DNA of 60,849 nucleotides from a virus (Duplodnaviria; Caudoviricetes), in IMG/VR virus record IMGVR_UViG_3300007734_000735, positions 1-60,849 of that record; one strand, given 5' to 3'. Positions 10,006-45,831 of the stretch are shown piece by piece (positions within the stretch are counted from its first letter, which is position 1; each line of letters starts with the position of its first letter). The notes beneath the pieces are model-generated. The model was given only the letters and a program-made list of their open reading frames with translations, had not been told where the DNA came from and made no database searches. The position numbers and the translations under genes were made by a program.

Positions 10006-11421
10006 ATGGCAGAAAGACCTGACCTACAAGAGTTTGGCTCAACTGGTTTACGCCGTTCAGGTGGAACAGTTTATGAAGAATTTCTCGTCAATCTTAGAGG
10101 CATACGCGGTGCAAAGACTTACCGCGAAATGGCAGACAATGACCCAACAATCGGGTCAATGTTGTTTGCAGTTGAAAAAGTTATTACTCGTCTTGAATGG
10201 CGTGTAGACCCATATAGCGATGATTCAGCAGACGGTGAAGTAAATGCTAAAGATAAAGAAGTGGCGGCATTTGTCGAGTCGTGTATTCATGACATGTCCG
10301 ATTCATGGGATGCAACACTTTCACAAATTCTTTCAATGCTTGTATTTGGATTTTCTTATCACGAAATTGTTTACAAAGTCCGTAAGGGTGATGGCAATGA
10401 CCCAAAGAAGCGCTCAAAGCATAATGACGGAAAAATTGGTTGGCGCAAAATGCCTATCCGCGCACAAGAAACTTTATTCCGTTGGGAAATCGATGCAGAC
10501 GGTGGAATTCAAGCCATGTTGCAAGTGGACCCATCAACAGGTGGAATACATACAATTCCAATTGACAAGGCTTTGCTTTTCCGTACAGTAACAACAAAGA
10601 ATAACCCTGAAGGTCGCTCCATTCTTCGTAATGCTTATCGTCCTTGGTTTTTTAAGCGTCGCATTGAAGAAATTGAAGCAATCGGTATTGAGCGTGATTT
10701 AGCAGGATTGCCAGTTGCATACCTACCTCCTGAATATCTTTCTTCATCTGCATCAGCCGAACAACAGGCAGTATTAGCATCAATTCAAAGCATCGTTACA
10801 TCTATCAAGCGTAATGAACAAGAAGGCATTGTGATGCCAGCGATGTACGACGATGCTGGACATAAGATGTTTGACTTGCAGTTGCTTTCATCAGGTGGTT
10901 CTCGTCAGTTCGACACAGACAAGATTATCAATCGCTATGACCAGCGCATGGCAATGTCAATCCTTTCAGACTTTATTCTTCTCGGTTCAGACAGAGTTGG
11001 TTCTTACGCTCTCGGCGCATCCAAGATGGATTTATGGTCAATGGCAGTTGATTCAATTGCTAAGAACATCGCTGAGGTAATGAATCAGTACGCTATTCCT
11101 CGTTTGATGAAGTTGAATGGAATGGACATCTCTCGCGCTCCGTACTTAACTTACGGCGAAGTAAGCCATGTTGATTTAACTGAAATCTCAGACTTTGTAA
11201 CTAAGTTGGCTCAGGCTGGCGTTCTCATGCCTGACCCTAAGTTGGAAGATTATCTTCGCGAGTTGGCAGGTCTACCTCCAGCAGAACACGATGGAACAAA
11301 CTTTGGTATGCCTCCTATGCCTGAAGGTGCAGATAGCGCTGAATTTGATGCACCTCCATCTATGGAAGAAGAGTTAGAGATTCCTGAAGGAGCAGAACCG
11401 CTAGACGGCGATGTGGATTAA
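10006..11421 (+). CDS. Portal protein (Mu gp29/DUF935-like)
   Basis: NPEGRSILRNAY, GIERDLAGLP, GSYALG motifs; size and position. Confidence 0.88.
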   Translation: MAERPDLQEFGSTGLRRSGGTVYEEFLVNLRGIRGAKTYREMADNDPTIGSMLFAVEKVITRLEWRVDPYSDDSADGEVNAKDKEVAAFVESCIHDMSDSWDATLSQILSMLVFGFSYHEIVYKVRKGDGNDPKKRSKHNDGKIGWRKMPIRAQETLFRWEIDADGGIQAMLQVDPSTGGIHTIPIDKALLFRTVTTKNNPEGRSILRNAYRPWFFKRRIEEIEAIGIERDLAGLPVAYLPPEYLSSSASAEQQAVLASIQSIVTSIKRNEQEGIVMPAMYDDAGHKMFDLQLLSSGGSRQFDTDKIINRYDQRMAMSILSDFILLGSDRVGSYALGASKMDLWSMAVDSIAKNIAEVMNQYAIPRLMKLNGMDISRAPYLTYGEVSHVDLTEISDFVTKLAQAGVLMPDPKLEDYLRELAGLPPAEHDGTNFGMPPMPEGADSAEFDAPPSMEEELEIPEGAEPLDGDVD

Positions 11422-11423
11422 AA

Positions 11424-12431
11424 ATGCCTTTACACTTTGGCGGAGACGGAAAGCGTCGTAATCCATTAACGGTAGAGGAACAGGCGTTAGCCCGCGTTCT
11501 CTACGATGCTATTCGTAAATCAACTAACACAATTAAGGTTGAAGAGTTAGCGCGTATTATTAAGCGCCTTGACCCTGATTCTTTGAATCGACTTCTTAAT
11601 GCAATATCTGTTGCTGGAAACAGAAAACAGATTGAGGATGCTTTGATGGCATCTATTGACATAGGCGGGCAACAAGCAGTTCAACAGATTCAATCTATTG
11701 CGCCTAAATTAGCCTTACCTGCATTTATTCCTAAGCCTGTAAAAATTACAAACAAGGCTCCTATGGCTAACATGGATTTTACAAAGATTCCTTCTTGGGC
11801 AAGCCCAACGCCACCTCCAGTTACATTCTCATTGTCATTTAATAAAACAAACCCAAACTCTTTAGCCTTTGCATCTAAAAGAGCAGGGCAGTTGATTACT
11901 AGCATTGATGAATTAACCCGCATAGCAATTCGCAAGATTATTATTGATTCATTTAATGAGCAGTTGGATTATCGTGCTACCGCTCGTCGCATTAAAAACA
12001 TCATTGGATTACATCCCAAGTGGGCAGATGCAGTAACAAAGTTTGAAAAGCGTGAGTTAGAGCGTTTAATTAAAAGCGGAATGAAAGAGGCAAAAGCCCG
12101 CCAAGCATCTGCCGCGTCTGCATCTAAATATGCTGACAGATTACGCGGTGCAAGAGCCACGATGATTGCTCGAACCGAGATTCAGATTGCACAAAACGAG
12201 GGACGCTACGAAGGCTGGAAACAAGCCGATGAAGCAGGTCTCATAGACCCGAGTTCAATGAAGATGTGGAAAACAGCCGAAGATGAGCGCACCTGCGATA
12301 TTTGCGCCCCCCTTGATGGTGAGATTGTTCCTTGGAACGGTTTGTTCTCTATCGGGCTTGAGTTGCCTACTGTTCACCCTAATTGCCGTTGCCAAATGTT
12401 GATTCTTCCTCCTGATAGGGGAACGCTATGA
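11424..12431 (+). CDS. MuF / SPP1 gp7-like minor head protein
   Basis: IARTE...W.T..DERTC..C...HPNCRC. Confidence 0.9.
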   Translation: MPLHFGGDGKRRNPLTVEEQALARVLYDAIRKSTNTIKVEELARIIKRLDPDSLNRLLNAISVAGNRKQIEDALMASIDIGGQQAVQQIQSIAPKLALPAFIPKPVKITNKAPMANMDFTKIPSWASPTPPPVTFSLSFNKTNPNSLAFASKRAGQLITSIDELTRIAIRKIIIDSFNEQLDYRATARRIKNIIGLHPKWADAVTKFEKRELERLIKSGMKEAKARQASAASASKYADRLRGARATMIARTEIQIAQNEGRYEGWKQADEAGLIDPSSMKMWKTAEDERTCDICAPLDGEIVPWNGLFSIGLELPTVHPNCRCQMLILPPDRGTL

Positions 12432-14794
12432 CCCTAGTAATTAAATTTGAACCTGGGCTTCGTCCAGTATTGAAGCATGAGCAACATGACCAAGCCACCC
12501 ACGGCTCATGGGCTAACGGTACTTCTGAATCTTCTCTAATCTCGACTGATACACAAATTGCATTTGCTGAAGGGGCAATCAAAGCAACGGATAACATCTT
12601 GAGTCCAAGTGCCTATAAATCTCAGTTAGAAGGCAATCTTAATAGAACATATCCAAAAATTTATTTAGAAGAAGCGGTGAATAACCCCGCTTATCAGGAT
12701 GCTCTTCAAACACATCTTAAAAGTATTGGGTTTCCTGAAACGGTTAAGGTCTTTTCTAGTAGCGCTCAAGAAGGCGAATACTTCCATGGTTCTGTTGCAC
12801 CTTTGTGGGATTCAGGAGCAGTTGGTTATGAGAGTGAAGAATCACCAAAAGAATTTTTGGTAAACCGCTCAGACATTATTGGACTTGGAAAAGTAGCAGA
12901 TAGTGGAGTTTGGTTTAGAAATTCAAAGACAGTCAAAAAGCACCAAGAACACGACCAAAAGACGCACGGTAACTGGGCTACGGGCGGAGAAATGGAGAGT
13001 TGGAATCCCAACGACCCAATTCCAGCAAGTCCTCGAAACGCTGGAGGAATGACTCAGAAGATTTGGGATAACTGGGAACACGGTGTAGATGGAAATCAAT
13101 ATGTTGAGTTGTATCGCCAATACGCGGGAGAAGCACTTGGAATTGCCGTACCTAAAAGCAGTATGGATGTTGGCGGTAACTTAAATTATTTAACACAGCG
13201 GGGCTTTGGTGGCTCTTCAACGGATACGGTTAGAAAACAAGCCGAAACAATCTTGCAAACAATTGCGAATGGTAAACCTGAGCAACCAGCCTTGTATCGA
13301 GGAATGACCGCTACGGATGCAGATGGTCAAGCCTTATTAAATAGCATCACAAAACTCAAGGCTGGAGATACGCTGGATATGCCTTTAGTTTCAACAACTC
13401 GTTCTTTAGGAGTTGCAACATGGTACGCCACAGACCGCTCAACAAGCGGAACAGGCAATGTAATTATGAAAATCCAACCTGGAGCAAAAGGCGTATCTCT
13501 ATCTAAAGAGACAAGCCGTTATCCACAAGACTACGAAGTTATCACAAGCGGTAAATTTGAAGTGGTAAGCGTAAATACGATTCAGAGTTCTTATTGGCAA
13601 CGAGGCGTCCTTGAGCCTCGCAAAATTAGTTACACGGATGGCTCTGAGTCGCACTATGAAGTTGCTACCTACAGCCCTCGTAGATACAGCCCTGAAGAGG
13701 CAAAGACCATTTATGAAACAGTTACTAGCGGTAAATACAAATCCCTAGAAACCCCTACTTTCAAAATAACCAACGATAGGCACAATAATTACCCTGACCG
13801 ACCTAAACTATCCACATGGGAAAAACAACCAGCGAGGGAGTTTACCGTGGTGGAGGTTAAGTTCATTGAGCCTCATGTTGTTAGAAAGGCTGAGTCCAAA
13901 GATTACGGATTAACCTTTGATTCGTTATTTAATAACATCCCATTCATTCGTGAAGAAGATATGGAAAAGCACCAACAAGGTCTACACGACCAGCGTACTC
14001 ACGGTTCATGGGCTATGGGCGGGGCTGGGGCTGATATTACTGACGAGTTAGATAAAGTGTTTTTTAACAATAAGTTGAATGTCAAAGAGAGTAAAATTTT
14101 TCCTGGAAGTTTAAGAATACCTACTCAAGCGGAAATTGCTCGCGCTGGCATGAATGACGAAACAATCAAACTAATCGAGGAAATGTCTCAAAAACAAATT
14201 GAAAGCGGGCAAGCATACGGAGACAACGCTCTAAAGATTATTGCTGAACGCCAAGGGTTTACTGGCAAACCAAAAACAGTTGCAACTATAGAAGATTTAC
14301 AGAAGATTCAAAGCACCGAGGCTGGCATTTTGGTATATCGCGGAGTTACTGATTATTCAAGAGCGCAAGCATCAGGCGGTGGTTCAGTTCAACCAACTTA
14401 CACAGCCGAACAAGCATTGACTGATTTTAGAGAAGGTGAGTATTTTGGTGGCTGGGGCGTGTTTGGGAATGGAACCTATACAACTCAACGAATAGATGAG
14501 GCTGTTTCCTATTCAGAAACTATGGATTTAGATAATGGAAAACTTGGTAATGGTCGTGTAATGGCAATGCTAATTCCTAAAAATGCAAAGGCGCCTAGCG
14601 AAACTCTTGTAAAAAGTATTGTAAAAGATATGGTTTATGGCGGAGAACCCAGCCATCGCAATAACATTGGCAGAAGGCTTGCCTCCATGGGTTATCAGTA
14701 TTACGATGCTGGTCATGTTCAAAATGATAAATATGGAACTTATGTAATCCTTGATAGGTCAATGCTTACAGTTGCAGAAAAGGCGGTGGGTTGA
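12428..14794 (+). CDS. Tagged polyprotein 1: three KH..HDQxTHGxW modules, two with ART-like domains
   Basis: Tags at 12473, 12938, 13967; ALYRGM..VSTT..QDYEV and LVYRGV..FGNGTY..YVILDR. Confidence 0.7.
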   Translation: MTLVIKFEPGLRPVLKHEQHDQATHGSWANGTSESSLISTDTQIAFAEGAIKATDNILSPSAYKSQLEGNLNRTYPKIYLEEAVNNPAYQDALQTHLKSIGFPETVKVFSSSAQEGEYFHGSVAPLWDSGAVGYESEESPKEFLVNRSDIIGLGKVADSGVWFRNSKTVKKHQEHDQKTHGNWATGGEMESWNPNDPIPASPRNAGGMTQKIWDNWEHGVDGNQYVELYRQYAGEALGIAVPKSSMDVGGNLNYLTQRGFGGSSTDTVRKQAETILQTIANGKPEQPALYRGMTATDADGQALLNSITKLKAGDTLDMPLVSTTRSLGVATWYATDRSTSGTGNVIMKIQPGAKGVSLSKETSRYPQDYEVITSGKFEVVSVNTIQSSYWQRGVLEPRKISYTDGSESHYEVATYSPRRYSPEEAKTIYETVTSGKYKSLETPTFKITNDRHNNYPDRPKLSTWEKQPAREFTVVEVKFIEPHVVRKAESKDYGLTFDSLFNNIPFIREEDMEKHQQGLHDQRTHGSWAMGGAGADITDELDKVFFNNKLNVKESKIFPGSLRIPTQAEIARAGMNDETIKLIEEMSQKQIESGQAYGDNALKIIAERQGFTGKPKTVATIEDLQKIQSTEAGILVYRGVTDYSRAQASGGGSVQPTYTAEQALTDFREGEYFGGWGVFGNGTYTTQRIDEAVSYSETMDLDNGKLGNGRVMAMLIPKNAKAPSETLVKSIVKDMVYGGEPSHRNNIGRRLASMGYQYYDAGHVQNDKYGTYVILDRSMLTVAEKAVG

Positions 14795-15660
14795 TGCTTA
14801 CTCCAGTCCAGTCTCAGCGCTATGCCCAATTGGTAAACAACTTTAAGGAAAAAGAATTCTATGCTTACCATGAGCATCTTCTCGCGGGCGGGAGAGTTGA
14901 AGATTTCTTTGACAAGATGGAAAAGCACGGTACCCATGACCAAAAGACACATGGTTCATGGGCTGATAGTAATTCTTATGATGAGGTCGAGGCAAAGAAT
15001 GAAATCCTTATGGATGAATGGCGAAAAAAATATGGGATATTGAGTGAGTATTTAGAATCCAAAGGCTTGACCCGCTCATGGAATGAAATTCAAGCCGACC
15101 CCAAAGCAAAAAAGATGCAAGAGGCAGTTGATGCAATTTGGAAAAAAATGCAAACAAATCAGAATAAATTTTATGATGAACATTTTGAAAAGAATGAAAC
15201 TGAGGATTTTGATAGGTTAAGAGATAAATATGTTGTTGCCGACACGCCAACTTTGAAAATGAACAAGCAATTGCGTGAGGGTGGGGGACTTACCCAAAGA
15301 GTTAAAGATGCTGACGCCTTGTGTGCCATGGGGGTCGTTAAAGAACGAGTTGGTGTTTACAGGGGAGCATTTCTTCCAAAAGAACTAATCGATACAATTA
15401 AAGTTGGAACTTCATTTACCGATAAAGGTTTTCAGTCTACCGATGTAGATAAATCTTCTGCTCAGTTTTATGCAAGAAGTAGAAAAGAAGGTGGGGCGCA
15501 GGGAGAACTTGTTTTATTCCGTTATACATTAGAAAAGGGATTAAACGCCATTGATGTTAGTTATGGAGAGGTTGTAGTTCAACGAAATGCAACGATAACT
15601 GTAACTAAAAAAACTAAAAGTGGCGAATATACAATTATTGATGCGACGGTGAATAAATGA
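14791..15660 (+). CDS. Tagged VIP2-like ADP-ribosyltransferase
   Basis: Tag at 14923; MNKQLR, VYRG, DKGFQSTD, GEVVVQR. Confidence 0.75.
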   Translation: MMLTPVQSQRYAQLVNNFKEKEFYAYHEHLLAGGRVEDFFDKMEKHGTHDQKTHGSWADSNSYDEVEAKNEILMDEWRKKYGILSEYLESKGLTRSWNEIQADPKAKKMQEAVDAIWKKMQTNQNKFYDEHFEKNETEDFDRLRDKYVVADTPTLKMNKQLREGGGLTQRVKDADALCAMGVVKERVGVYRGAFLPKELIDTIKVGTSFTDKGFQSTDVDKSSAQFYARSRKEGGAQGELVLFRYTLEKGLNAIDVSYGEVVVQRNATITVTKKTKSGEYTIIDATVNK

Positions 15661-16397
15661 ATAAAGAATTACGCGTCACAATGGATGTTGAAGATTTCCT
15701 TTCAATGTTTTCACAAGTTGATTCTTTTGAGAAGCATCAAGAACATGACCAGCAAACTCACGGCAATTGGGCTTCAGGTAATTATGAGAATCTTGCCGAT
15801 TGGTTTAAAGATGAAGTAAAAGTCTTTGCGTCCGAGACAGATAAAGAAGTTTATTTCATGACTAAACTATTTAGCCAACGCCTCAAAGGTTTCACAGAAA
15901 TGGCTTATCCTGAGTTCTCGGGAGCAATAAATAATTATGAAAGTCGTCTTGGTTATGACATGAATGAGGCTTTGCGTGACCCTCAAATAAGTGAAGATGG
16001 CTATAAATCAACTATTGATTTACTTGATAAGGCGATAGAGACCGCTCCTGCATTGAGTGAAGAGTTGGTTGCTTACCGAGGAGTTAAAGGCAACGGATTA
16101 AAGTTTTTTGAAAATCTTAAAGTTGGAGATACTTACCAAGACAAAGGCTACACATCGACAACAATTGATGCTGGAGTTGCTCAACAATTTGGCGGACAAC
16201 AACCGTATTATGACGGTTTAGTTTTCCGTATGAAGTTACCCGCTGGTACAAAAGGAATCTTTCCTGCGGGCTATCACGAACCTGTAAACGGTTGGACACC
16301 ATCTACGACTGAGGCTGAGTTCTTATTACCGAGAGATAGTAAATTTACTATTGTTGCCCAGCGTGGCAAGGTTTGGGATGTAGAGTACAAACCATGA
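15657..16397 (+). CDS. Tagged VIP2-like ADP-ribosyltransferase (ExE motif)
   Basis: Tag at 15732; MNEALR, AYRGV, DKGYTSTT, EAEFLLPR. Confidence 0.85.
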   Translation: MNKELRVTMDVEDFLSMFSQVDSFEKHQEHDQQTHGNWASGNYENLADWFKDEVKVFASETDKEVYFMTKLFSQRLKGFTEMAYPEFSGAINNYESRLGYDMNEALRDPQISEDGYKSTIDLLDKAIETAPALSEELVAYRGVKGNGLKFFENLKVGDTYQDKGYTSTTIDAGVAQQFGGQQPYYDGLVFRMKLPAGTKGIFPAGYHEPVNGWTPSTTEAEFLLPRDSKFTIVAQRGKVWDVEYKP

Positions 16398-18985
16398 ACC
16401 TAGAGAAGTTCCAACACGCATCCTTGAACGGTCTTTCACTTGTACTGGAAAAGCACGGCTCCCACGACCAAAAGACGCACGGTAACTGGGCAAACCTCAC
16501 AGTTGATGGGCAAACAGTTGAAGGCAAAACCATCACGGGCTTGATAGATAAGTTAAGCGAGAAGAAAACTCCAGGATTTAGTATCGACATCCGCACTAAG
16601 CAATCTGCCAAAGATGGCTTTATTGCCTCTGATGTAGGAGCCGAGAGAGTGCTTGATTTCGCCCCTCTGAAGGCTTCTAGGGCGAGTTTGAGGACTGCTT
16701 TGAAGGATTACATCAACGACCATGCTGAGTTGCTTGATAACAAGGGTAGTTTCTTTGGCGCTTGGGTAGAGCAAGGAAAACTTTACTTAGATGTCTCAAG
16801 AAGGTATAATTCTCGGTCAGAGGGTGTACGAGCAGGATTTAGAAACGAACAAAAAGCAATCTACGATGTAGTCAATGACTCGTACATTTACATGAAGGAT
16901 GAGGTCGATGAGCGAACAAACAAAGCCCGTCTTGGTGGAAACTCCGAAGCCAGTCAAGGAAATGACGGAGAAGGAGAAGGACGCCTTCGTGGACGAAATT
17001 TTGCAAGCGATAGAGGGCAATCTCTAAATCGCCATGTCTGCCTTGGCAGATACACAGTACAAAAACACCGAGAAGGCGAGCATGACCAAGCCACACATGG
17101 CAATTGGGCTGGGGATAGATACCCTGTTGATTCAGTTAAGAGCGCTAGAGATGGCGCAAAAGAATACGCTTTCAAAAAAGGCTTAAAACCTGACGAAACA
17201 ATTGATTACACAAAGGTTGTTGCTAATCGCGAACGAGCATCACGCATTGCTGACATCTATGAAACTTTGCCAAAGAAAGATGTTGAAGCAATTGATGAGT
17301 ATGAGGCGCTGGCATCTGAAGTAGAAGAGCAATTCGACTTTATGACCAAGACTCTTGGGGTCAAGGTTGAGTTCGTTGCTACTGACCCATACAGGACATC
17401 TCAGGAAATGTTTCAAGATGTCAGCCGTGGAAACCTTAAAGTTTTGCAAACAGAGACAACAGGCGCACATCCACTTTTCTCAGATGCTCAAAACAATAAA
17501 TTCCGAGCAGTTCACGATTACTTTGGACACGCGGCTACTGGTCGCGGATTTGGTCAAGATGGCGAAGAGTCCGCATGGGTACATCACTCTCAAATGTTTA
17601 CAGAGAAGGCTCGAGCGGCTCTAACTACTGAGACCCGAGGACAAAATTCATTCTTCAATAATCGCGGAAAACAGTTCGCTGACCAAAAGGTTGCCTTGCT
17701 TCCCGAAGAGTTTTGGGCTGTCCCAGCAACATTTCAGAAGATTAAAGTTATTCGTTTTGCCGCTGGATTGAAGCCAGTAATTAAGCACGAACAACACGAC
17801 CAATCTACTCATGGTAGTTGGGCGCGAGGCAATACGGCTGAAGAGGACGCCTTAATTAACGAAATGGAAGGCGTTGGTCCTTCGCTACAAGATTTAGAAA
17901 ATGCTCTGACCCCCGCCGAACAGCCTGACTACACCGACCTAAAAGATTATGTTAAGAATGATGCGGGTATGTACGAGGCAGCAATTGAGGGAATTGAAGA
18001 AAGAATGAAAGAGCGTTATCAGAATTTAACCGAGGATGAATACAATAAAATAAAAGAACGAGAATTAGATATAATGGTTGAAGAATACATTGATAATGAT
18101 GATGGAACCATTGCACAATTATGGCAAGAGCAAAACGGTACTGAGGAATTTAACGCTGAAGAGTTACATCCTTTCTTTGATGAGGTTTATGCCATGAGCC
18201 ATGATGTCTTAAATGCTCAGGGTGAAGTTGCCACAACTCTTAGTTCATCAACAAATAACATTTATCTTGATGGTGAAAGATTAGTTGTAACTGGCGAAAT
18301 TATGGATGATGCTGGTAATTGGGCTGGAGAGTTCCAACGCGGTTTCTTCAAAAGCCAAGATAGAGAAGGCAACGAAATTTGGGCTGTTGAGCATGACTTA
18401 TTCAAAATGGATGATGAATACGCAGGAGTTGGATTTGGCTCAAAGTTTATAGCCCGACAAGAGGCTTGGTATACCGCTGTGGGAATAGGCAGAATTGATG
18501 TAGGCACCGCTTGGGATGGCGCTCGACATTGGGCTAAATCAGGGTATGACTTCGACGAAAGAGGTATGCGCCAAAATGTAAATGAATTGATAAAGGGAAG
18601 AGCATTTAATCCTGATGATTTTGCTGAAGGTTCAGCAAACCGCCTTGAGTTTGATTCTTTAATTTCAAAAATGGTTACTGATTACGACCCAAGTTCGAGG
18701 TCATTTAATTCAACAAAACCAATTAGATTAGATGATTTTCCTATCCCAAACGATTTCTTGATGATTGGCTATAAAGATAGAGTTCAAATAGGCACTAATC
18801 AAATTACAGGAAAGCCTGTCTATTCATGGGCTGGTGCAAGATTGCTGAACAATCTCAACATGAAGTACCAAAAGGGCTTAAGCAAGGAAGGTCGTTCAAT
18901 CACTCAGGGTCCAATTGACCGCGATGGCGATGGCTTGGTTTATGACGGCACCGCTCGCGAAAAGCCCGCTCCTACGGTAAACTAG
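16394..18985 (+). CDS. Tagged polyprotein 2: two unassigned domains plus C-terminal GNAT acetyltransferase
   Basis: ATGA-coupled start 16394; tags at 16451, 17063, 17783; YAGVGFGSKF...GARHWAKSGYDF. Confidence 0.7.
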   Translation: MNLEKFQHASLNGLSLVLEKHGSHDQKTHGNWANLTVDGQTVEGKTITGLIDKLSEKKTPGFSIDIRTKQSAKDGFIASDVGAERVLDFAPLKASRASLRTALKDYINDHAELLDNKGSFFGAWVEQGKLYLDVSRRYNSRSEGVRAGFRNEQKAIYDVVNDSYIYMKDEVDERTNKARLGGNSEASQGNDGEGEGRLRGRNFASDRGQSLNRHVCLGRYTVQKHREGEHDQATHGNWAGDRYPVDSVKSARDGAKEYAFKKGLKPDETIDYTKVVANRERASRIADIYETLPKKDVEAIDEYEALASEVEEQFDFMTKTLGVKVEFVATDPYRTSQEMFQDVSRGNLKVLQTETTGAHPLFSDAQNNKFRAVHDYFGHAATGRGFGQDGEESAWVHHSQMFTEKARAALTTETRGQNSFFNNRGKQFADQKVALLPEEFWAVPATFQKIKVIRFAAGLKPVIKHEQHDQSTHGSWARGNTAEEDALINEMEGVGPSLQDLENALTPAEQPDYTDLKDYVKNDAGMYEAAIEGIEERMKERYQNLTEDEYNKIKERELDIMVEEYIDNDDGTIAQLWQEQNGTEEFNAEELHPFFDEVYAMSHDVLNAQGEVATTLSSSTNNIYLDGERLVVTGEIMDDAGNWAGEFQRGFFKSQDREGNEIWAVEHDLFKMDDEYAGVGFGSKFIARQEAWYTAVGIGRIDVGTAWDGARHWAKSGYDFDERGMRQNVNELIKGRAFNPDDFAEGSANRLEFDSLISKMVTDYDPSSRSFNSTKPIRLDDFPIPNDFLMIGYKDRVQIGTNQITGKPVYSWAGARLLNNLNMKYQKGLSKEGRSITQGPIDRDGDGLVYDGTAREKPAPTVN
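16908..17027 (+). CDS. Nested out-of-frame 39 aa protein (candidate immunity)
   Basis: GAGGT RBS then MSEQTKPVLVETPKPVKEMTEKEKDAFVDEILQAIEGNL*; host frame there is a G/R-rich linker. Confidence 0.5.
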   Translation: MSEQTKPVLVETPKPVKEMTEKEKDAFVDEILQAIEGNL

Positions 18986-18989
18986 CCTT

Positions 18990-19136
18990 ATGAAGAGACA
19001 AGAGAGATTAGACGCCTTATCGAAACTCCATGCCTCCATGCCTGTTGAGATGGAAGGTTTGCCTGACGATAACGAGGTCGCTTTCTTGGATAAGGTAGTA
19101 GAACAAAAACTAACTACGGTTCAGGAAACTAAATAA
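18990..19136 (+). CDS. 48 aa protein, probably leaderless (candidate GNAT antitoxin)
   Basis: TAAACT 6 nt before ATG; MKRQERLDALSKLH... Confidence 0.55.
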   Translation: MKRQERLDALSKLHASMPVEMEGLPDDNEVAFLDKVVEQKLTTVQETK

Positions 19137-19167
19137 CAGTTGTAAATCTATCCGCTATCATTGCAAC

Positions 19168-21375
19168 ATGGCGGATATAGCCCCAAAGTTAATTTCTTTA
19201 AGCGTTGAGAAACTACTCGCGCTTCATGAGCGTATTCATAAGTCTGAAGCCTCTTCAGCAACAATCGAGGTTCACCACACAATTCTCAATGAGTTGGCTC
19301 GTCGCAAGATGGAGGCTCCCAAAGATAATTGGGACGACTTTGAAATTCTTGTTGATTCCATTAACGATGTAGACCTGACATCCTTTGGCTCATCCTTGCC
19401 AGCCGAAATGGTTGCAGAAGTTATTAAATCTAGCGGTAGCAATGTCGGCAATGTGCAGACTTTCCTCACCTCGCAAGGTTATGAAATGCGAATTGAGCCG
19501 ATTGAACTAGACCCTATCGAGAAGATGATTCGCGAAGAAGATGGCGAGTTCACAGTTTATGATTCAACGGGACGACGCAGATTTGGCACTTATCCATCAA
19601 AGAAAAAGGCTGAAGAGCGCCTTGCACAAATTGAAAGATTTTCTAAAGCAGATAACACTCCACCCAAGGCAGTTCGCTCCGCCGCTCGTCGCGCACTTGA
19701 TTGGATTGGCGAAGGTAAGGCTGGTGGAGGATTTACTTCAGTTGGTCGCGCCCGCGCATCGCAGTTGGCTTCAGGAGAATCTGTCTCGTTAGAAACTCTC
19801 AAGCGAATGAAATCTTTTTTCTCACGCCATGAAGTAGATAAGAACGCGCTTGGATTTAGCCAAGGAGAAAAGGGTTATCCATCTCCAGGTCGCGTTGCTT
19901 GGGATGCTTGGGGCGGAGATGCAGGATTCGCATGGGCTGAGTCCATGGTTGCTCGCGCCGAAAGAGAAGAAGAAGTTGCAAAACATAATCCTGGCAAACA
20001 CGACCAAAAAACTCATGGCTCTTGGGCTGATGGCATTGCAGATGCAATCAACAACGGCGAACACCCAATGGTTGAAAAAGAAAATGTTTCGGCGTTTCTA
20101 CTTAAAGCATCAACCCGCACAGACCACCCTGACTTAACTGAATTGAGCATTGAAGGAACATTGCTCTACGGCGATGAAGGTATGGGAATTGCCCGTAAGG
20201 ACATGCCGCAAATTCCTGGCAAAGAACGCGCTCGTTTCTTAGAAGAGATTGAAAAGAGCGATGGCATTACAGTTGAAAAAGAGAAGGTAGACCCAACAAC
20301 CTTAAAACCAATTCAAAAAGAAATCTCTGCCGCTCGCTCAGGTGCTATCTATAAGAAGTTTCAAGAGGATGGCGAGATTCCAAAGAACGAACGCATACTT
20401 ATTTCTAAAGATGGTTTTGTAATCGATGGACACCATACATGGGGCGCCGCGGTTGCTTTTGCTTTTGATAATCCTGGAACTGAGTTGCCTGTCTATCGTT
20501 TATCTGTCACAGCAAAAGAAGCGTTAGCCATCTCATCAAAGTGGTCGAAGGATAATGGTTTTGAGGGTCAAGCAATTGACGCGAAAGAGCCAGCCAAGAA
20601 AAACCTCACATGGCAAACACTTACAAAGCATGGAAATCATGACCAGCGCACCCATGGCTCATGGGCGAATAACATGGTTTCAGACATTGAACCTGAGCAG
20701 GGACAATCAAAAGAAGCCATTGCACTTGCTCGCGCAGTTCGAGAAAAAGCAGTTGCGGCTGAGCCAGTAATCACAAAATTAGTTGAAGGTATTGCAGAGC
20801 AATCAGGTGCAAAACTTGAAGGTCTTTCACAACGCATTAAATCAACAGATTCTCTTGCACGAAAGATTGACCAAGATGCCGAGCAGGGATACCAAGGAGA
20901 TAGAAAGAAAGCGGCTGAAGAAATCTCTGATGCAAACCGTTACACAATCTCAGTCAATGACACAGATTATTTAGATACACTAAATTCTGCTGTTACTGCA
21001 TTTGAGGCAACTGGGTGGAAAGTCCGAGTTAAAAACTTTTGGCAGTCAGGCGACCCTTACGATGGTGTGAACATCAAGGCAGAGCGTGATGGCATTAAAG
21101 TTGAGTTGCAGGTACACACTCCAAAGTCATACCAAACCAAAGAAAAAGCCCTTCACGACATTTACAAGGAATACAGAAAATCTATCGATGATGCAGTCCG
21201 TCGTAGCAATTGGGACAAGATGGTAAGCATTGCTAAGCGGGTTCCTCGCCCAGCCAATTACGCTACCGTTCTTGGAATTGGTTCATTAGTTATTCAGCAA
21301 TTTGAGACCGCTCAACAGGCTGGCTTGATAAAATCAACTGGGGTTGGTAAACTATCCCATGAGGGGAGGGCATAA
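19168..21375 (+). CDS. Tagged polyprotein 3: small head-associated domains, ParB/Srx-like domain, RelA/SpoT small alarmone synthetase
   Basis: Tags at 19981, 20626; VIDGHHTW; RIKSTDSLARKI..DANRY..YDGVN..VELQVHT..H. Confidence 0.8.
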   Translation: MADIAPKLISLSVEKLLALHERIHKSEASSATIEVHHTILNELARRKMEAPKDNWDDFEILVDSINDVDLTSFGSSLPAEMVAEVIKSSGSNVGNVQTFLTSQGYEMRIEPIELDPIEKMIREEDGEFTVYDSTGRRRFGTYPSKKKAEERLAQIERFSKADNTPPKAVRSAARRALDWIGEGKAGGGFTSVGRARASQLASGESVSLETLKRMKSFFSRHEVDKNALGFSQGEKGYPSPGRVAWDAWGGDAGFAWAESMVARAEREEEVAKHNPGKHDQKTHGSWADGIADAINNGEHPMVEKENVSAFLLKASTRTDHPDLTELSIEGTLLYGDEGMGIARKDMPQIPGKERARFLEEIEKSDGITVEKEKVDPTTLKPIQKEISAARSGAIYKKFQEDGEIPKNERILISKDGFVIDGHHTWGAAVAFAFDNPGTELPVYRLSVTAKEALAISSKWSKDNGFEGQAIDAKEPAKKNLTWQTLTKHGNHDQRTHGSWANNMVSDIEPEQGQSKEAIALARAVREKAVAAEPVITKLVEGIAEQSGAKLEGLSQRIKSTDSLARKIDQDAEQGYQGDRKKAAEEISDANRYTISVNDTDYLDTLNSAVTAFEATGWKVRVKNFWQSGDPYDGVNIKAERDGIKVELQVHTPKSYQTKEKALHDIYKEYRKSIDDAVRRSNWDKMVSIAKRVPRPANYATVLGIGSLVIQQFETAQQAGLIKSTGVGKLSHEGRA

Positions 21376-22081
21376 TAAATTGCGATACTTTGTAAACTTT
21401 TACCGTAATAAGCCACATACTCTATGGCGTTTTGATGTTGAGCCTGACCGTGTTCTCGAAGAGCGCTGGGATGGCTTGTCATGGACTCCCACGACCTACA
21501 TCGCCGAGTACCTCATAGATGGCGAAGCAAACATTGATGAGATTACTCCTGAGTTGGCTATGAAAACTTTTCCAGTTGCTTTCAATGATGTTGCTAAATC
21601 TATTGGCGCTTATGAAGTTTCTAAGGCTGAGGGCGAGAAGCGATACACACTAGGGGCTATGTACATCCCTGACCGCCTTGATGCACACAATGAGTGGACA
21701 GATGCCGAGGAGTTGCAAAGAGCAGTTTGGGATTATGTCCGCAGTAATGACCGCCGTATTCGACTACAACACAATCGCGAAATTGTTGCAGGTGAATGGG
21801 TTGAAGTTATGTCATTCCCATACGAATTAACAGTTCCAATTACAACCCCAAGTGGAATTATGGTCAATCACACTTATCCTGCGAACACGGTTTTCCTTGG
21901 TGTTATTTGGGAGGAATGGGCATGGGAGAAGATTCAACGCGGAGAGATTCTTGGCTATTCAATTGGTGGACGAGCAGAGCGCCTATATGTGGACATGGAA
22001 AAGAACGACCCAACTGTTACCGATGTGCATGTTGATACAATTATGAAACCATCGAAAAAGAAGCCAAAGGAAGCCAAATGA
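21359..22081 (+). CDS. XkdF-like prohead serine protease with extra N-terminal domain
   Basis: YIPDRLDAH..EELQRA..LQH..WEKIQRGEILGYSIGG; start uncertain (ATG 21359 or TTG 21380). Confidence 0.8.
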   Translation: MRGGHNKLRYFVNFYRNKPHTLWRFDVEPDRVLEERWDGLSWTPTTYIAEYLIDGEANIDEITPELAMKTFPVAFNDVAKSIGAYEVSKAEGEKRYTLGAMYIPDRLDAHNEWTDAEELQRAVWDYVRSNDRRIRLQHNREIVAGEWVEVMSFPYELTVPITTPSGIMVNHTYPANTVFLGVIWEEWAWEKIQRGEILGYSIGGRAERLYVDMEKNDPTVTDVHVDTIMKPSKKKPKEAK

Positions 22082-22482
22082 AAGACAAAAAGATTCTCAA
22101 AGAACTCCGCAATGGTCCTATGAAAAACATGAAGGACGAGGAGTACGCCATGATTGAAGAAGAAGTCAATCAAAAGGGAATCAAAGGTCTTAAAGGTTAC
22201 GCCAAGTCAATGATTGAAAAGGCTATGCGAGATATGGCTTATTCAATGAAAAAGGCTCTTTCTGTTTCAACAGGTGACATGGTTTCTTGGAATTCATCAG
22301 GTGGCATGGCTACAGGCAAGATTGTCCGTATTGTGCGTGAGGGCAAAATCAATGTTCCTGATTCAAGTTTTGAGATTGAAGGAACCGAAGATGACCCAGC
22401 CGCTTTGATTCAGTTGTACCGCGATGGCAAGCCAACTGAGACAAAAGTTGGACATAAGGTTTCAACACTAAAAAAAGCCTAA
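22078..22482 (+). CDS. Tudor/SH3-like (DUF2945-type) head-region protein; -1 frame extension to 22715
   Basis: GDMVSWNSSGG..GKI..GTEDDPA..VGHK.STL. Confidence 0.7.
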   Translation: MKDKKILKELRNGPMKNMKDEEYAMIEEEVNQKGIKGLKGYAKSMIEKAMRDMAYSMKKALSVSTGDMVSWNSSGGMATGKIVRIVREGKINVPDSSFEIEGTEDDPAALIQLYRDGKPTETKVGHKVSTLKKA

Positions 22483-22711
22483 GCCTAGACAAACATCTAG
22501 GCACCGTTCACGACCAAAAAACTCACGGTGGAAAATACAACACCGATGATGCTGAGGGTGAGGATAGTTCTGAACCAAAGAACTTCAGGGGCAAAAAGCC
22601 AAAGGTAAGTTACGACGAAAACGACACAGACGGTGAGTTCGACAATAACGCCGATGACCCAAAATGGATGGATGACATGGACATCTTGAGACCACCTGCT
22701 AGAAACAAGCG

Positions 22712-22975
22712 ATGAAAACAATTATTGATAGCACAATTGAGATTCTGAGTTCAATGAATCTCAAGGCAAATAAGGTCACAACGCCTCCTGGCTATGCAGG
22801 AATTCAAATTGATTTACCCAACGACTCCCAAGCCTTTTTTGTGTGGAGCAAAATGGATGACGATGACTTCCATTTCAGGACAGCGCGTTTTTGGGCAAAC
22901 GACAATCCTTTTTCAATGTGGATTTGTCCAAACTTGCCCGAGGCTCTAGCCCAAACGAGGGTTTTAATAAACTAA
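22712..22975 (+). CDS. Hypothetical protein
   Basis: 87 aa; ATGA overlap with the frameshift-extension stop. Confidence 0.65.
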   Translation: MKTIIDSTIEILSSMNLKANKVTTPPGYAGIQIDLPNDSQAFFVWSKMDDDDFHFRTARFWANDNPFSMWICPNLPEALAQTRVLIN

Positions 22976-23078: not shown

Positions 23079-23876
23079 TTGGCTGGTCGTACTCGTAAGA
23101 TGGTGAATTTAGCCATCGAGGAAACTAGCGGGGTAGACCATCCCGCTCATCTACACGAAGGTTGGCTTGTAATGAAGTCAGCCGAAGAATCTGAAGTTCA
23201 GAGGGTTTTAGACGAATCGCTCACCGAGGAGGACTCCACAATGGAGGATACATCTACCACGGCTACTGAAGAGCAGGTTGTAAATCCTACTGAGGAACTA
23301 ACCATCGCTAAGGCTCGCATCTCTGAACTTGAAGAGGCATTAGCCAAGGCTTCTGCGGACGCTGAAATGTCCGAAGAAGATAAGAAAAAGAAAAAGATGG
23401 AAGAGGAATCCTCTGAGGAGATGGACTACATGAAGTCCGCACCTGAGTCAGTCGTCAAAATGATTGAGAACTTCCGCAAGCAAGCAGAAGAAGCAACCGC
23501 AGAACTTAAAAAAGAACGCGATGCTCATGCTGATGCAGAAGCAGTTGAAAAAGCAAAGAGTTGGGCAAACCTCAATCTCGATGCAGAAAAAGTTGGTCCA
23601 GCACTACGCCGTCTATCAAATGTAGACGCAGAACTAGCAAAGTCAGTTGAAGAACTACTTGCTTCAGTCAATGCACAGGCTGAATCAGCACAAATTTTTG
23701 CGGAAATCGGCAAATCCGCAGACTTCAAATCAGGAAATGCTTATGAGCGTATGACTACGCTTGCTAAGTCAGCCGTTGAAGAGGGTGTAGCAAAGTCATT
23801 CGAGCAAGCGCTCGCTGATGTTGCTACAAAGAACCCTGACCTTTACAGCCAATACCTATCCGAGAAAGGTGCCTAA
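23079..23876 (+). CDS. Capsid scaffolding protein
   Basis: EETSGVDHPA..LVMKS start, acidic coiled coil, C-terminal NPDLY; upstream of capsid genes. Confidence 0.75.
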   Translation: MAGRTRKMVNLAIEETSGVDHPAHLHEGWLVMKSAEESEVQRVLDESLTEEDSTMEDTSTTATEEQVVNPTEELTIAKARISELEEALAKASADAEMSEEDKKKKKMEEESSEEMDYMKSAPESVVKMIENFRKQAEEATAELKKERDAHADAEAVEKAKSWANLNLDAEKVGPALRRLSNVDAELAKSVEELLASVNAQAESAQIFAEIGKSADFKSGNAYERMTTLAKSAVEEGVAKSFEQALADVATKNPDLYSQYLSEKGA

Positions 23877-45219: not shown

Positions 45220-45249
45220 TTGACATAACCAACAGGGGTTGTGTACCCT
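45220..45249 (+). promoter_or_regulatory. Sigma-70-like promoter with inverted box in the spacer
   Basis: TTGACA-18 nt-TACCCT containing CAGGGGTT. Confidence 0.6.
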
Positions 45250-45271
45250 CTCGGATGAGAGGAGAACAACC

Positions 45272-45820
45272 ATGTCAAATGTACAACCCGAAATCGACGA
45301 GTTCGACAATCCCGCTCTATCTTCAATATCAGCGGAAAATGAGGGCTTCAAGGTTGATGACGACCAAAAGGCTGATTGGGCATTACGCAAATTAGCAGTC
45401 ATTCGCCGTAAGCAAGCCGAGAACAAAAATATCTATGACGCAGAGGTTATCCGTATCGCGGAATGGCTCTCAGCGGTCAATACAGCCCTTGACAAAGATG
45501 CCTTGTACTTTGAGGCAGTCCTTACCCCATACGCTCTCACAGAGCGCTCCAACGGGCGCAAATCGCTAGTTCTGCCCCACGGCACAGTCAAAACTACGGC
45601 TGGTCGTCCAAAGATTGAAATTGAGAACGAAGTTGAGTTCTTAGCATGGGCGGAAAAAAGTGAGCCTGAGTTGATTCGCATTAAAAAAGAAATTGACAAA
45701 AAGGTTCTAAATACTTTACTTACCGATTCAGGTGATGTAATATCAACCCAAGGCGAAATTGTTCCATCGGTTCGAGTTATTCCAGCCGAGACCTCAGTTT
45801 CGTTCGTCATAGCAGATTGA
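45272..45820 (+). CDS. Mu Gam-like host-nuclease inhibitor
   Basis: ADWALRKL..coiled coil..KSLVLPHG..IKKEIDK. Confidence 0.75.
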   Translation: MSNVQPEIDEFDNPALSSISAENEGFKVDDDQKADWALRKLAVIRRKQAENKNIYDAEVIRIAEWLSAVNTALDKDALYFEAVLTPYALTERSNGRKSLVLPHGTVKTTAGRPKIEIENEVEFLAWAEKSEPELIRIKKEIDKKVLNTLLTDSGDVISTQGEIVPSVRVIPAETSVSFVIAD

Positions 45821-45831
45821 GAGAGGAACTC

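Follow-up and report, generated by a model that had tools for sequence, protein, structure and literature searches.

A repeated tag heads the modules of a predicted head-internal cargo cassette in an uncultured siphophage: a possible processing joint in polyvalent proteins

Polyvalent proteins of phages unite ART, RelA/SpoT, GNAT, ParB-type, zincin, and MuF domains in one chain; their genes lie next to those for portal and terminase, and their predicted fate is packaging, processing into units, and injection (Iyer, Burroughs, Anand, de Souza, and Aravind 2017, PMC5512222). In the excerpted main text of that paper, a zincin metallopeptidase is named as the processor, and a repeated inter-domain motif is not mentioned. 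Temperate phages also encode MuF polymorphic toxins, in which the head protein MuF carries a variable toxin domain (Jamet et al. 2017, PMC5576092); excerpts of that text mention no linker, junction, cleavage, pre-toxin, or histidine. In the giant phage SPN3US, according to excerpts of PMC10052503, the prohead protease (gp245) trims its own C-terminal propeptide, and ejection proteins lose N-terminal propeptides of 20 to 254 residues at a short A-x-E motif.

The window analysed here, the whole 60,849-base record of an uncultured virus, contains a region that is best read as a hypervariable head-internal cargo cassette between the MuF and XkdF genes of a siphophage of about 61 kb. As in the polyvalent proteins of the excerpted paper, unrelated enzymatic domains share a chain and adjoin packaging genes. 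Here, however, a single conserved joint (the tag) recurs, modules are often split over coupled ORFs, and the window cassette has no zincin. An initial sequence-only reading had proposed a candidate new system; the locus is not wholly new but fits phage-type polyvalent proteins, a kind already known, and the new element is the joint. The features of the head operon are as follows.

10006 to 11421, + strand: portal protein, Mu type (Pfam Portal_Mu, E 3.4e-42)
11424 to 12431, + strand: MuF-like minor head protein, no cargo domain (Pfam Phage_Mu_F, E 9e-15)
12428 to 14794, + strand: ORF A, 788 aa; 16-aa leader, tag, A1 (unassigned), tag, A2 (ART-like), tag, A3 (ART-like, weaker)
12473 to 12514, + strand: tag 1 (KHEQHDQATHGSWA), preceded by the extended element VIKFEPGLRPVL
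12938 to 12979, + strand: tag 2 (KHQEHDQKTHGNWA)
13967 to 14014, + strand: tag 3 (KHQQGLHDQRTHGSWA), with a 4-residue spacer
14791 to 15660, + strand: ORF B, 289 aa; 45-aa leader, tag 4 (14923-14964), B1
15657 to 16397, + strand: ORF C, 246 aa; 26-aa leader, tag 5 (15732-15773), ADP-ribosyltransferase domain (C1)
16373 to 18985, + strand: ORF D, 870 aa; leader, tag 6 (16451-16492), D1, tag 7 (17063-17110), D2, tag 8 (17783-17824), D3
17783 to 17824, + strand: tag 8, carrying the extended element VIRFAAGLKPVI
19168 to 21375, + strand: ORF E, 735 aa; E0, tag 9 (19981-20028), E1 (unassigned), tag 10 (20626-20667), E2
21344 to 22081, + strand: XkdF-type prohead serine protease (Pfam Peptidase_S78_2, E 9.3e-13)
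22078 to 22482, + strand: Tudor-like (Hva1_TUDOR) head-operon protein, short form (Pfam E 4.4e-8)
22470 to 22502, + strand: -1 frameshift signal, with slippery A_AAA_AAA (22470-22476), 6-nt spacer, and 7-bp hairpin (22483-22502)
22476 to 22715, + strand: -1 frame extension, with tag 11 (K codon 22491; HDQKTHGGK) and an acidic tail of about 60 aa ending DDPKWMDDMDILRP
23079 to 23876, + strand: scaffold-like protein (phrog_13547), no tag in the window
24291 to 25268, + strand: major capsid protein (Pfam Phage_cap_E, E 1.7e-6)

The cassette thus has portal and MuF on one side and protease, scaffold, and capsid on the other. Four gene junctions overlap, MuF/A (stop and start sharing ATGA), A/B, and B/C by 4 bases and C/D by 25; on our reading, the C/D overlap would also be 4 bases if ORF D starts at the internal ATG 16394.

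A six-frame regular-expression search of the whole record gave 11 HDQ.THG matches, every one of them within 12485-22528 of the + strand (H codons at 12485, 12950, 13985, 14935, 15744, 16463, 17081, 17795, 19999, 20638, and 22509), and the degenerate DNA pattern CAYGAYCARNNNACNCAYGG recovered exactly these sites. Dinucleotide-preserving shuffles (n = 100) yielded a mean of 0.00 and a maximum of 0 matches. The claim of 11 K-H..HDQxTHG copies between MuF and the scaffold-like gene and none elsewhere was borne out down to the K codons (12473, 12938, 13967, 14923, 15732, 16451, 17063, 17783, 19981, 20626, and 22491): outside this stretch, the rest of the 60,849-base record holds zero copies. Ten copies continue [S/N]WA, as had been noticed, and the 11th continues GGK. 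The ORFs carry 3 (12428-14794), 1 (14791-15660), 1 (15657-16397), 3 (16373-18985), and 2 (19168-21375) copies; of six claimed reading frames, these five are ordinary ORFs, while the sixth is an extra frame without its own start.

Among the modules, C1 is ADPrib_exo_Tox (Pfam, E 3e-16) and falls into a single BLAST family with B1, and A2 and A3 match ART profile A4 by hhalign (98.6%, E 1.2e-15 and 95.2%, E 2.6e-8, respectively). E2 matches SaSAS, a solved small alarmone synthetase (PDB 8vx3, E 3.4e-12), as well as the C-termini of Streptococcus phage MuF/head-morphogenesis proteins. The module identities proposed at the outset are thus verified in part, for the four ART-like modules and the RelA/SpoT-like synthetase; Pfam and NCBIfam recovered neither the GNAT nor the ParB-like assignment. 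D2 is phrog_3170, with 48% identity to gp205 of Rhodococcus phage E3, which its depositors labelled a 'structural protein'; E0 is a 272-aa conserved head-associated domain, and ORF E matches phrog_2859 along its full length.

The motif is widespread in IMG/VR, with 481 copies in 118 loci, of which 108 have the portal/MuF/XkdF head module as in the window. Those unrelated loci that were rescanned have terminase, Portal_Mu, MuF, or XkdF adjoining the tagged ORFs, and XkdF is present in every locus that extends to that region, the loci being partly incomplete. A profile search found 920 protein clusters with the tag, including one chain with nine tag-ART units. Tagged proteins include ART, RelA/SpoT-like, GNAT, NUDIX, and DUF3626 modules, and ART-PolyVal and ddrB-ParB (Pfam) domains are present in tagged relatives. 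The motif is confined to terminase/portal/MuF/XkdF neighbourhoods with varied downstream enzymes, as predicted. In 185,579 bacterial and archaeal genomes, there were 6 pattern matches, 2 of them real and both on MAG contigs; the tag is thus practically absent from sequenced bacterial genomes, and hence from prophages.

In several relatives, the tag joins cargo and head proteins directly. MuF, tag, and cargo form one frame in nine relatives, E0, tag, and XkdF form one ORF in three (L014, L043, and L006), and one frame begins XkdF-tag. The tag also occurs with the Tudor-like protein (12 cases) and in the positional counterpart of the scaffold-like protein in L116 (4188-5234). The notion that MuF is toxin-free and that cargo is supplied in trans therefore holds in the window, but not in those nine relatives. 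The fused frames and the homology of E2 to MuF C-terminal domains recall the MuF toxins, but the window MuF ends before the cargo, the modules are many rather than one, no immunity gene is evident, and the tag is near-absent from bacterial genomes. Packaging is inferred for every member; the modules might instead be late-expressed cytoplasmic enzymes or assembly factors that happen to lie in the head operon, with the tag acting in folding, regulation, or turnover. We regard this as highly improbable given the in-frame fusions to MuF, prohead protease, and scaffold-like protein, the homology of E2, and the fact that ART, RelA/SpoT-like, GNAT, NUDIX, and DUF3626 are known or predicted injected effector types (PMC5512222, in excerpt).

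The tag is also the point at which modules and their upstream leaders reassort. Most module families are found both ORF-first and internally; one upstream leader cluster (74 members) precedes 17 module families, and a C1-like ART family (58 members) follows 27 upstream clusters. Such exact reassortment, together with the ERF and Gam recombination proteins encoded by the phage, would suit a recombination joint only, i.e., a common crossover point for cassette swapping without a role in the protein, like the pre-toxin motifs of polymorphic toxins. However, the 11 window copies differ at synonymous third positions, leaving short runs of DNA identity, while amino-acid conservation is near-absolute over 481 copies, including distant lineages of differing G+C content. 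Selection thus appears to act on the peptide, and a pure recombination joint is very doubtful.

The full motif, hydrophobic-x-K-H-x(2 or 4)-HDQ-x-[T/S]-HG-x-WA-x-G, includes the element originally described but reaches further upstream, with a hydrophobic residue two before K in 94% of 427 contexts; the spacer between K-H and HDQ is 2 residues in 242 and 4 residues in 168 of these. ORF-first tags (n = 318) have a hydrophobic P3 in 97% and K at P1 in 98%, internal tags (n = 173) in 91% and 95%, respectively. At least 11 residues precede K in 278 of 279 ORF-first tags, and the residues upstream of the tag thus appear to be needed. The Lys, taken to be conserved, is present in most tags but not in every lineage, some having E-H or Y/F-H instead, as in P0181 (V-V-E-H) and P0089 (x-x-Y-H, with K/R rather than a hydrophobic residue at P3). 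Variation of P1 by lineage with the rest constant is what would be expected of a co-evolving protease site. Among 253 retrieved proteins, the median distance of the first HDQ from the N-terminus is 23 residues and the median tag-to-tag spacing is 217 residues. The 1st and 5th percentiles for residues after the last tag are 39 and 139; tags always lie N-terminal to a domain and never at a chain end, confirming that each module is headed by a tag. In the AF2 model of ORF C, residues 22-37 (tag) have pLDDT <50 and the domain from residue 41 has block means of 74-98, mostly >85, so that the tag is predicted to reside in a flexible, unstructured linker. No Pfam family covers the tag, and we found no description of the motif in the literature searched.

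Our preferred, albeit tentative, explanation is that these are phage-type polyvalent cargo proteins whose tags serve as processing joints, with the prohead protease cutting behind the Lys. The chains would go into the procapsid alongside MuF, the E0-protease protein, and scaffold, and the XkdF-type serine protease would cut each joint after Lys (hydrophobic P3, K at P1, H at P1'). Released modules would retain an N-terminal His-rich HDQxTHGxWA, possibly as an exosite or a retention/ejection tag, and would be ejected together with the DNA into the host. Encapsidation and ejection, as well as cleavage, the bond that is cut, and the function of the His-rich portion, are inferred from the contig sequence of an uncultured virus. 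We propose that modules can fuse, split, and swap without functional loss because the joint is identical everywhere. The sequence-only reading had likewise assumed polyproteins cut after Lys; its tags at module heads and their confinement to head genes hold up, but K is not universal, the MuF arrangement is not general, and the system is not wholly new.

Cleavage is consistent with the head-operon position and its recurrence elsewhere, the tag direction, the disordered linker, the upstream residues, a matching site in XkdF (below), P1 lineage variation, fusion and fission at tags, and the fact that in relatives the tag joins all classes of head-internal protein. On the other hand, an 18-20-residue, mostly prime-side motif with three invariant His far exceeds known prohead-protease needs and would also fit a binding or metal site; the K/R at P3 in P0089 also argues against cleavage. 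The tag may instead be an uncut docking tag, a short linear epitope, possibly metal-closed (three His, one Asp), that encapsidates a module or bead-string of intact chains by binding a partner inside the procapsid, for example scaffold, the inner face of the capsid, portal, MuF, E0, or the Tudor-like protein. The strong conservation of H, HDQ, HG, and WA with the 2/4 spacer looks like a metal site or an element recognised in two halves, the tag by itself lacks order (AF2), and it occurs in proteins that are themselves head components (MuF, scaffold-like, protease). We nevertheless consider docking somewhat unlikely, because a pure epitope needs neither at least 11 preceding residues nor hydrophobic-x-K at ORF starts, nor a constant position N-terminal to a domain. 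Free fusion and fission of modules is neutral between docking and cleavage.

The T4 prohead protease site is L/I-x-E. As in the T4 capsid-targeting sequence, internal proteins, and Alt, and in SPN3US as excerpted, cargo would be cut N-terminally at a P3-x-P1 motif in the prohead; however, there is no sequence similarity, those motifs span 3 residues without a following 14-residue His-rich block, and their proteins are single-module chains rather than tandem arrays. MARTX toxins are arrays of unrelated effector domains freed by linker cuts, as proposed here, and VENN of CdiA is, like the tag, a short conserved motif at the border of a swappable toxin cassette, but these are bacterial secreted toxins with a cysteine protease domain, other motifs, and another delivery route.

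Regarding the protease, H115, H143, and S206 of XkdF are invariant in an alignment (alignment A3) of 29 sequences, as is K220, which lies in hydrophobic-x-K directly after the protease domain. L116 and L121 have EIEK-H-tag at the K220 position. On our reading of the alignment, hydrophobic-x-K220 is a matching, putative self-cleavage site, comparable to the C-terminal self-trimming of the SPN3US protease; the predicted XkdF model is of too poor quality for fold confirmation. A different processor is conceivable, namely a zincin-type metallopeptidase (a cargo module or encoded elsewhere) acting before packaging or after injection, or metal-assisted self-cleavage. In excerpts of Iyer et al. 2017 (PMC5512222), such a peptidase (MPTase) is placed at the hub of polyvalent proteins as proposed processor. 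Zincin-type cargo is frequent in relatives (tagged SprT-like, DUF6782, ATLF, and TIGR04338-like modules; HEMGH in L116 ORF2), and HExxH occurs in 58 of 316 tag-bearing frames. The window itself encodes a candidate, ORF 896-1438 (HEIAH), with a match to the HExxH metallohydrolase family TIGR04338 (E 3.8e-8); alignments of 49-56 residues with tagged modules from relatives show 39% identity. This zincin is, however, untagged and outside the head operon, the window modules downstream of tags have no HExxH, and the Glu of the sole HExxH within ORFs A-E (HERIH in E0) is not conserved. Moreover, zincin modules occur in a minority of the (partial) loci, versus XkdF in every locus reaching its region, and we know of no self-cleaving motif that resembles the tag, making these routes quite unlikely.

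Finally, the frame of tag 11 has no ATG, GTG, or TTG start of its own and lies in the -1 register past the stop codon of the Tudor-like ORF (22078-22482); the 6-nt spacer of the frameshift signal terminates in this 0-frame TAA (22480-22482). The site folds at -10.8 kcal/mol (z -4.99), which none of 200 shuffles equalled. Across the window and 8 relatives, neither the A run nor the core of either hairpin arm varies, while the outermost pair differs in one locus, L062. Tag 11 is reachable solely via this conserved -1 frameshift site. The same extension is in frame with the Tudor-like ORF in seven relatives, and if the tag served docking, a Tudor-like protein with such a tagged extension could be the adaptor.

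The peptide HDQxTHG occurs 11 times in the window, always on the + strand, between 12485 and 22528. These are the 11 copies named in the sequence-only reading, which were recovered both by a peptide search and by a degenerate DNA pattern (0 hits in 100 dinucleotide-preserving shuffles); the Lys codon positions given there are exact, and the [S/N]WA continuation is found in 10 of the 11. The copies vary at synonymous positions, indicating that the peptide is the conserved entity. Scanning IMG/VR with CAYGAYCARNNNACNCAYGGNNNNTGGGC yielded at least 118 loci, in each of which at least one copy fits this strict pattern by construction and other copies are free to deviate. The looser expression H[DN]Q..HG finds 481 copies, at most 13 per locus (118 loci among the matches listed), and alignment on the first His gave 427 unique contexts. 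Among these matches listed, 412 have K directly ahead of the first His (the rest being Y 5, F 5, G 2, R 1, N 1 and E 1). Two positions upstream of that K, 94% have a hydrophobic residue, V alone accounting for 58%. Between the first His and HDQ there are 2 residues in 242 and 4 in 168, and HG is followed by x-W (95-97%), A (92%), x and G (71%). Together, these counts define the motif, referred to as the tag or joint, as hydrophobic-x-K-H-x(2/4)-HDQ-x-[T/S]-HG-x-WA-x-G. An extended upstream element, V-I-[K/R]-F-x-P-G-L-x-P-V-x-K-H, is present in about one fifth of the copies (among the matches listed). It is found directly after MuF, where it is in frame with MuF or forms the leader of the first ORF, and in the window it precedes tags 1 and 8.

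In a Pfam scan of 55 tag windows, no family was matched by more than one member, placing the tag outside every Pfam family, and a literature search with the motif strings found no paper. In an AlphaFold2 model of ORF C (15657-16397), the ART domain has block-mean pLDDT values of 74-98 from residue 41 onwards, mostly above 85, and the tag-bearing residues 22-37 are below 50. In this model the tag looks like a short linear motif of a linker, outside the domain fold.

The tags are set in the head operon of a complete uncultured-virus record (60,849 bases; CheckV completeness 100) with a siphophage gene set that includes portal, MuF, protease, scaffold, capsid, tail tube, tape measure, ERF, Gam and C5 methylase genes, among others. 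Two head genes flank the tagged cargo:

11424-12431, + strand: MuF, 335 aa, stopping before the cargo begins
21344-22081, + strand: XkdF-type prohead serine protease (Peptidase_S78_2, E 9.3e-13)

Between them, five translationally coupled ORFs (A to E) carry tags, which places the cassette between MuF and XkdF/scaffold/capsid. One further copy lies downstream of XkdF, behind the ORF for a Tudor-like protein. The sequence-only reading had anticipated that a motif search would find the tag confined to portal-MuF-XkdF neighbourhoods with varied enzymes downstream, and this is borne out: 108 of the 118 loci (among the matches listed) share the window's head genes, with portal identities to the window of 53-97% and one exception, L025, at 22%. 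The ten loci with no or weak similarity to those genes have tagged ORFs that mostly adjoin terminase, Portal_Mu, MuF or XkdF, and in loci L072 and L077 MuF is inside the tagged chain itself. Judged by the portal, the nearest isolates are Arthrobacter phages at approximately 57% identity; Arthrobacter phage Laroye has no tag. Contigs 95-100% like this region are present in sequencing runs labelled aquatic or freshwater. A megablast search with 15 kb gave no match.

The tag is also built into head proteins. Among the loci in the matches listed, one of the window's head proteins has a homologue in 54 of the 316 tag-bearing frames: E0, the 272-aa N-terminal head-associated domain of ORF E, in 29, the Tudor-like protein in 12, MuF in 9, an E0-tag-XkdF arrangement in 3 and XkdF followed by a tag in 1. 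In the nine MuF frames, the tag is the junction between MuF and cargo. The earlier picture of a toxin-free MuF with cargo supplied in trans therefore holds for the window, where MuF ends at 12431, but not for these nine relatives. The high-G+C locus L116 has an XkdF domain in the N-terminal part of a chain that continues with three tags, one of them before a Tudor-like segment; its scaffold-like ORF begins with 60 residues ahead of a tag, and MuF is followed by a tagged HEMGH zincin. The presence of tags in MuF, XkdF, Tudor-like and scaffold-like proteins argues that the joint serves every class of head-internal protein, beyond effectors.

To gauge the spread of the tag, we used a profile of 40 columns made from 55 tags. 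It matched 1051 proteins at E <= 0.01 among 6943 word-sharing candidates, and an exhaustive HMMER search over 1.84 billion representatives returned 920 proteins at E <= 1e-3, 309 at E <= 1e-10 and 34 at E <= 1e-30. For 253 retrieved proteins, the first HDQ is a median of 23 residues from the N-terminus (5th percentile 17), tags are spaced by a median of 217 residues, and the stretch behind the last tag has 139 residues at the 5th and 39 at the 1st percentile. A domain is always found behind the tag and the chain never ends on one, in agreement with the claim that the tag heads each module. The domains behind tags in 38 scanned representatives include ADPrib_exo_Tox, ART-PolyVal, DRAT, GNAT, NUDIX, DUF3626, DUF7178, DUF7699, SprT-like, DUF6782 and ATLF zincins, MuF and XkdF. 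Relatives carry up to 9-10 modules per chain; one database protein (P0003) has 8 tags and at least six ART domains. Of two more database proteins, P0121 (7059 aa) has 20 profile-matched tag stretches, 4 of which fit the strict expression, and P0122 (2201 aa) consists of nine consecutive tag-ADPrib_exo_Tox units.

Bacteria and archaea were scanned with one genome per species (185,579 species). The result was 6 pattern matches, which by our own estimate is around the chance level for a pattern of approximately 38 bits in 1.2e12 positions. Real tags account for two of the 6, each on an actinobacterial MAG contig. The motif is accordingly one of phages that do not turn up as prophages in sequenced bacteria. 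Among 50,697 phage records, a tblastn search with a 30-residue tag had only two matches, at E = 9, the motif being too short for BLAST.

The modules behind the tags are diverse and reassort at the joint. ORF A holds two ART-like modules and another module, and ORF E joins E0, another module and an alarmone-synthetase-like module in one chain. Two of the domain assignments made from the sequence were not reproduced: neither a GNAT in D3 (the third module of ORF D) nor a ParB in E1 (the first tagged module of ORF E) is supported by Pfam or NCBIfam; 'GNAT' on proteins resembling ORF D is the name given by the source. Searches of the PDB with phmmer gave no match for A2 and E1 and a weak MxiM match only for D3. 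Matches of A3 to designer PPR proteins, with 0 passing stretches, were treated as noise.

Because loose single-linkage families chained unrelated modules, we used a stricter clustering, which yielded 74 module families and 125 upstream-sequence clusters in the 118 loci (among the matches listed). Upstream sequences were clustered since ungapped pair identity misjudges their similarity after one-residue shifts. The same module families are found ORF-first and internal. Among the matches listed, the 74-member leader cluster MKVIKFxPGLxPVx precedes 17 module families, the 58-member family of C1-like ARTs stands behind 27 upstream clusters, and some neighbours are fixed (D1 followed by D2 in 16/17, E0 by E1 in 18/24 and E1 by E2 in 20/27).

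Several modules have relatives elsewhere. E2 (20629-21372) also has a match in the XopAD/skwp type III effector model, to the C-terminal end of that model. The score (E 8.1e-28) falls far short of the full-length cut-off, and the match suggests a terminal domain shared with this family. With identities of 42-48%, D2 (17066-17785, phrog_3170) matches gp205 of Rhodococcus phage E3, annotated 'structural protein', and proteins of approximately 200 Mycobacterium cluster-C-like phages; an 8.6-kb stretch of phage E3 has no tag pattern. E0 (19168-19983), in particular its residues 150-243, is a conserved domain without a Pfam family. Other proteins, annotated as capsid, prohead protease, portal or minor head protein, also begin with it, with homologues in Roseobacter, Synechococcus, Vibrio, Nodularia, Pontimonas and haloarchaeal viruses. 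In three loci (L014, L043 and L006), E0 is fused through a tag to the XkdF protease, and it perhaps represents the N-terminal domain that the protease protein had ancestrally. We considered E0 as a zincin and ruled this out, given that its HERIH is not conserved (homologues have H-Q/D/K/N-xx-H).

The eleventh tag is out of frame with the Tudor-like ORF (22078-22482) behind which it lies. The features concerned are:

22470-22502, + strand: candidate -1 frameshift site, with slippery A_AAA_AAA at 22470-22476, a 6-nt spacer and a 7-bp hairpin at 22483-22502
22476-22715, + strand: -1 frame extension with tag 11, behind the Tudor-like ORF

The Tudor-like ORF ends CTA AAA AAA GCC TAA, and the tag is in the -1 frame. 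A_AAA_AAA is a slippery heptamer of the X_XXY_YYZ form in the 0 frame, and the hairpin (-10.8 kcal/mol, z -4.99) falls at the expected distance of 5-9 nt downstream. In the window and 8 loci that are 78-89% identical (11-22% of positions differ), the A7 run does not vary, nor does the core of either hairpin arm; one outermost stem base varies, in L062, and the stop is kept where TAA is replaced by TGA (L094 and sequencing runs X6 and X9). By our own count of 25 loci (among the matches listed), 10 share the frameshift form of the window, 5 have A9 and then a stop, likewise needing a -1 shift, 7 are in frame, most with A7-A10 (L024 has no long A run), and 3 have no downstream tag. An RNA-library contig (run X18, record 3) bridges the site with no indel, and none was seen at the site in any run, in contigs that are blind to rare variants or rare transcriptional slippage. 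The slippery run, the conserved hairpin, the kept stop and the in-frame relatives make it very likely that the site acts as a -1 frameshift or slippage site and that two forms are made, a short Tudor-like protein and a longer fusion of Tudor-like domain, tag and acidic tail ending in conserved DDPKWMDDMDILRP.

We then asked whether the joint is cut. The XkdF residues H115, H143 and S206 are invariant among 29 aligned homologues, and by sequence the head module appears to hold a prohead protease with its catalytic residues kept. An equally invariant K220 is part of a hydrophobic-x-K just after the protease domain, and at this position L116 and L121 have EIEK, then H and the rest of the tag. An AlphaFold2 model of XkdF has a mean pLDDT of 55.9, with 40-60 in the protease domain, and Foldseek gave no PDB match at E <= 0.001, so that the model lends the fold no support. 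The N-terminal 70 residues (11-80) are modelled confidently (pLDDT >80) as a small beta-rich domain, and this part is replaced by unrelated sequence in some relatives. Complex prediction for XkdF and the 40-residue tag alignment gave scores of 0.01 and 0.00, the mark being 0.32, in runs without controls.

The upstream half of the motif is kept where no module precedes it. Among the loci in the matches listed, the residue at P3 is hydrophobic in 97% of ORF-first versus 91% of internal tags, K is present at P1 in 98% versus 95%, and at least 11 residues precede K in 278 of 279 ORF-first tags. This bears on an uncut docking tag, a reading we regard as unlikely: a simple epitope needs no upstream half at ORF-first tags, whereas a protease site does. 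P1 also differs by lineage (E in P0181, Y in P0089), with a constant HDQ block. The T4 (L/I-x-E) and herpesvirus (V/L-x-A↓S) protease sites have the same shape, a P3 residue, x and P1. We know of no prohead-protease site that is conserved as strongly as the block on the prime side of the tag. That block must have a further role, for instance as an exosite or in retention, metal binding or ejection, and its unusual conservation keeps the docking tag, as well as processing by a zincin, among the alternatives. The latter, proposed after Iyer et al. (PMC5512222), seems improbable to us. Relatives often carry zincin modules as cargo and the window encodes an untagged TIGR04338-like HEIAH gene (896-1438), but no window module downstream of a tag has HExxH, the sole one in ORFs A to E being the HERIH of E0. 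The untagged gene (+ strand, 181 aa) has a weak match to the TIGR04338 HExxH metallohydrolases (E 3.8e-8, below the curated cut-off), and some relatives have zincins akin to its product among their tagged cargo.

Cleavage after K by XkdF is the reading we rank first, if tentatively, on account of the upstream half being kept, the intact XkdF with its K220, the varying P1 and a precedent in phage SPN3US, whose prohead protease is described as cutting N-terminal propeptides of 20-254 residues off ejection proteins at A-x-E and removing its own C-terminal propeptide (PMC10052503). The observations that bear on a candidate prohead-protease site are the conserved P3 and P1, the linker pLDDT below 50, tags in several head proteins and the hydrophobic-x-K220 in the XkdF tail. 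A broader reading, possible but doubtful, is that of a portable cut-and-keep cargo signal in a widespread clade of uncultured phages: whichever domain stands behind the motif would be loaded into the procapsid and freed by the prohead protease, with the His-rich N-terminus governing retention or ejection.

MuF polymorphic toxins, reportedly described by Jamet and colleagues in 2017, are said to have an N-terminal MuF and a variable C-terminal toxin, to be encoded by temperate phages and prophages and to come with an immunity gene. With its cargo-free MuF the window does not encode one in the strict sense, although some relatives do, and in contrast to these prophage-borne toxins, the tag is real in only two MAG contigs among the 185,579 species scanned. 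To our knowledge, a processing site has yet to be described for the polyvalent proteins predicted in 2017. As Iyer et al. (2017, PMC5512222) describe them, polyvalent proteins have disparate domains in one chain and are encoded among portal and terminase genes, with a zincin-like MPTase as a common processing hub that is absent in some members; they are predicted to be carried in the virion and to enter the host along with the DNA. The cassette resembles the phage type so described in its disparate domains per chain and its location by head-packaging genes, but differs in lacking the proposed zincin processor in the tagged window modules; some relatives do have tagged zincins.

What is new here is the conserved joint, the fact that cargo, MuF, protease, scaffold-like and Tudor-like proteins all use it, and the combinatorial shuffling at it; the central mechanism of the cassette we infer. 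Cargo choice and loading are known for few phage models, such as the T4 capsid-targeting sequence, the P22 and T7 ejection proteins and the N4 vRNAP. One conserved joint at every module boundary would make the processing question testable with one protease, one peptide and a few point mutants. As an annotation key, the joint also divides long ORFs labelled 'hypothetical' into separate candidate effectors, among them ART-like arrays, modules of the alarmone-synthetase-like, NUDIX, DUF3626 and GNAT types and many others, and shows their shuffling. If the portable signal is real, the motif alone would delimit dozens of injected-effector families (74 strict families in 118 loci among the matches listed), with likely many more among the 920 protein clusters, and the cargo joint would be a phage counterpart of MARTX effector arrays. 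Should both cleavage and packaging be confirmed, it could be used as a tag for loading foreign proteins into phage heads or capsids.

Elsewhere in the window are a Hist_deacetyl-family gene on the - strand (58683-59609; Pfam E 1.1e-55) and genes for a C5 cytosine methylase (49355-50443), a ParB_N protein (51080-52264), Gam (45239-45817) and ERF (45817-46509).
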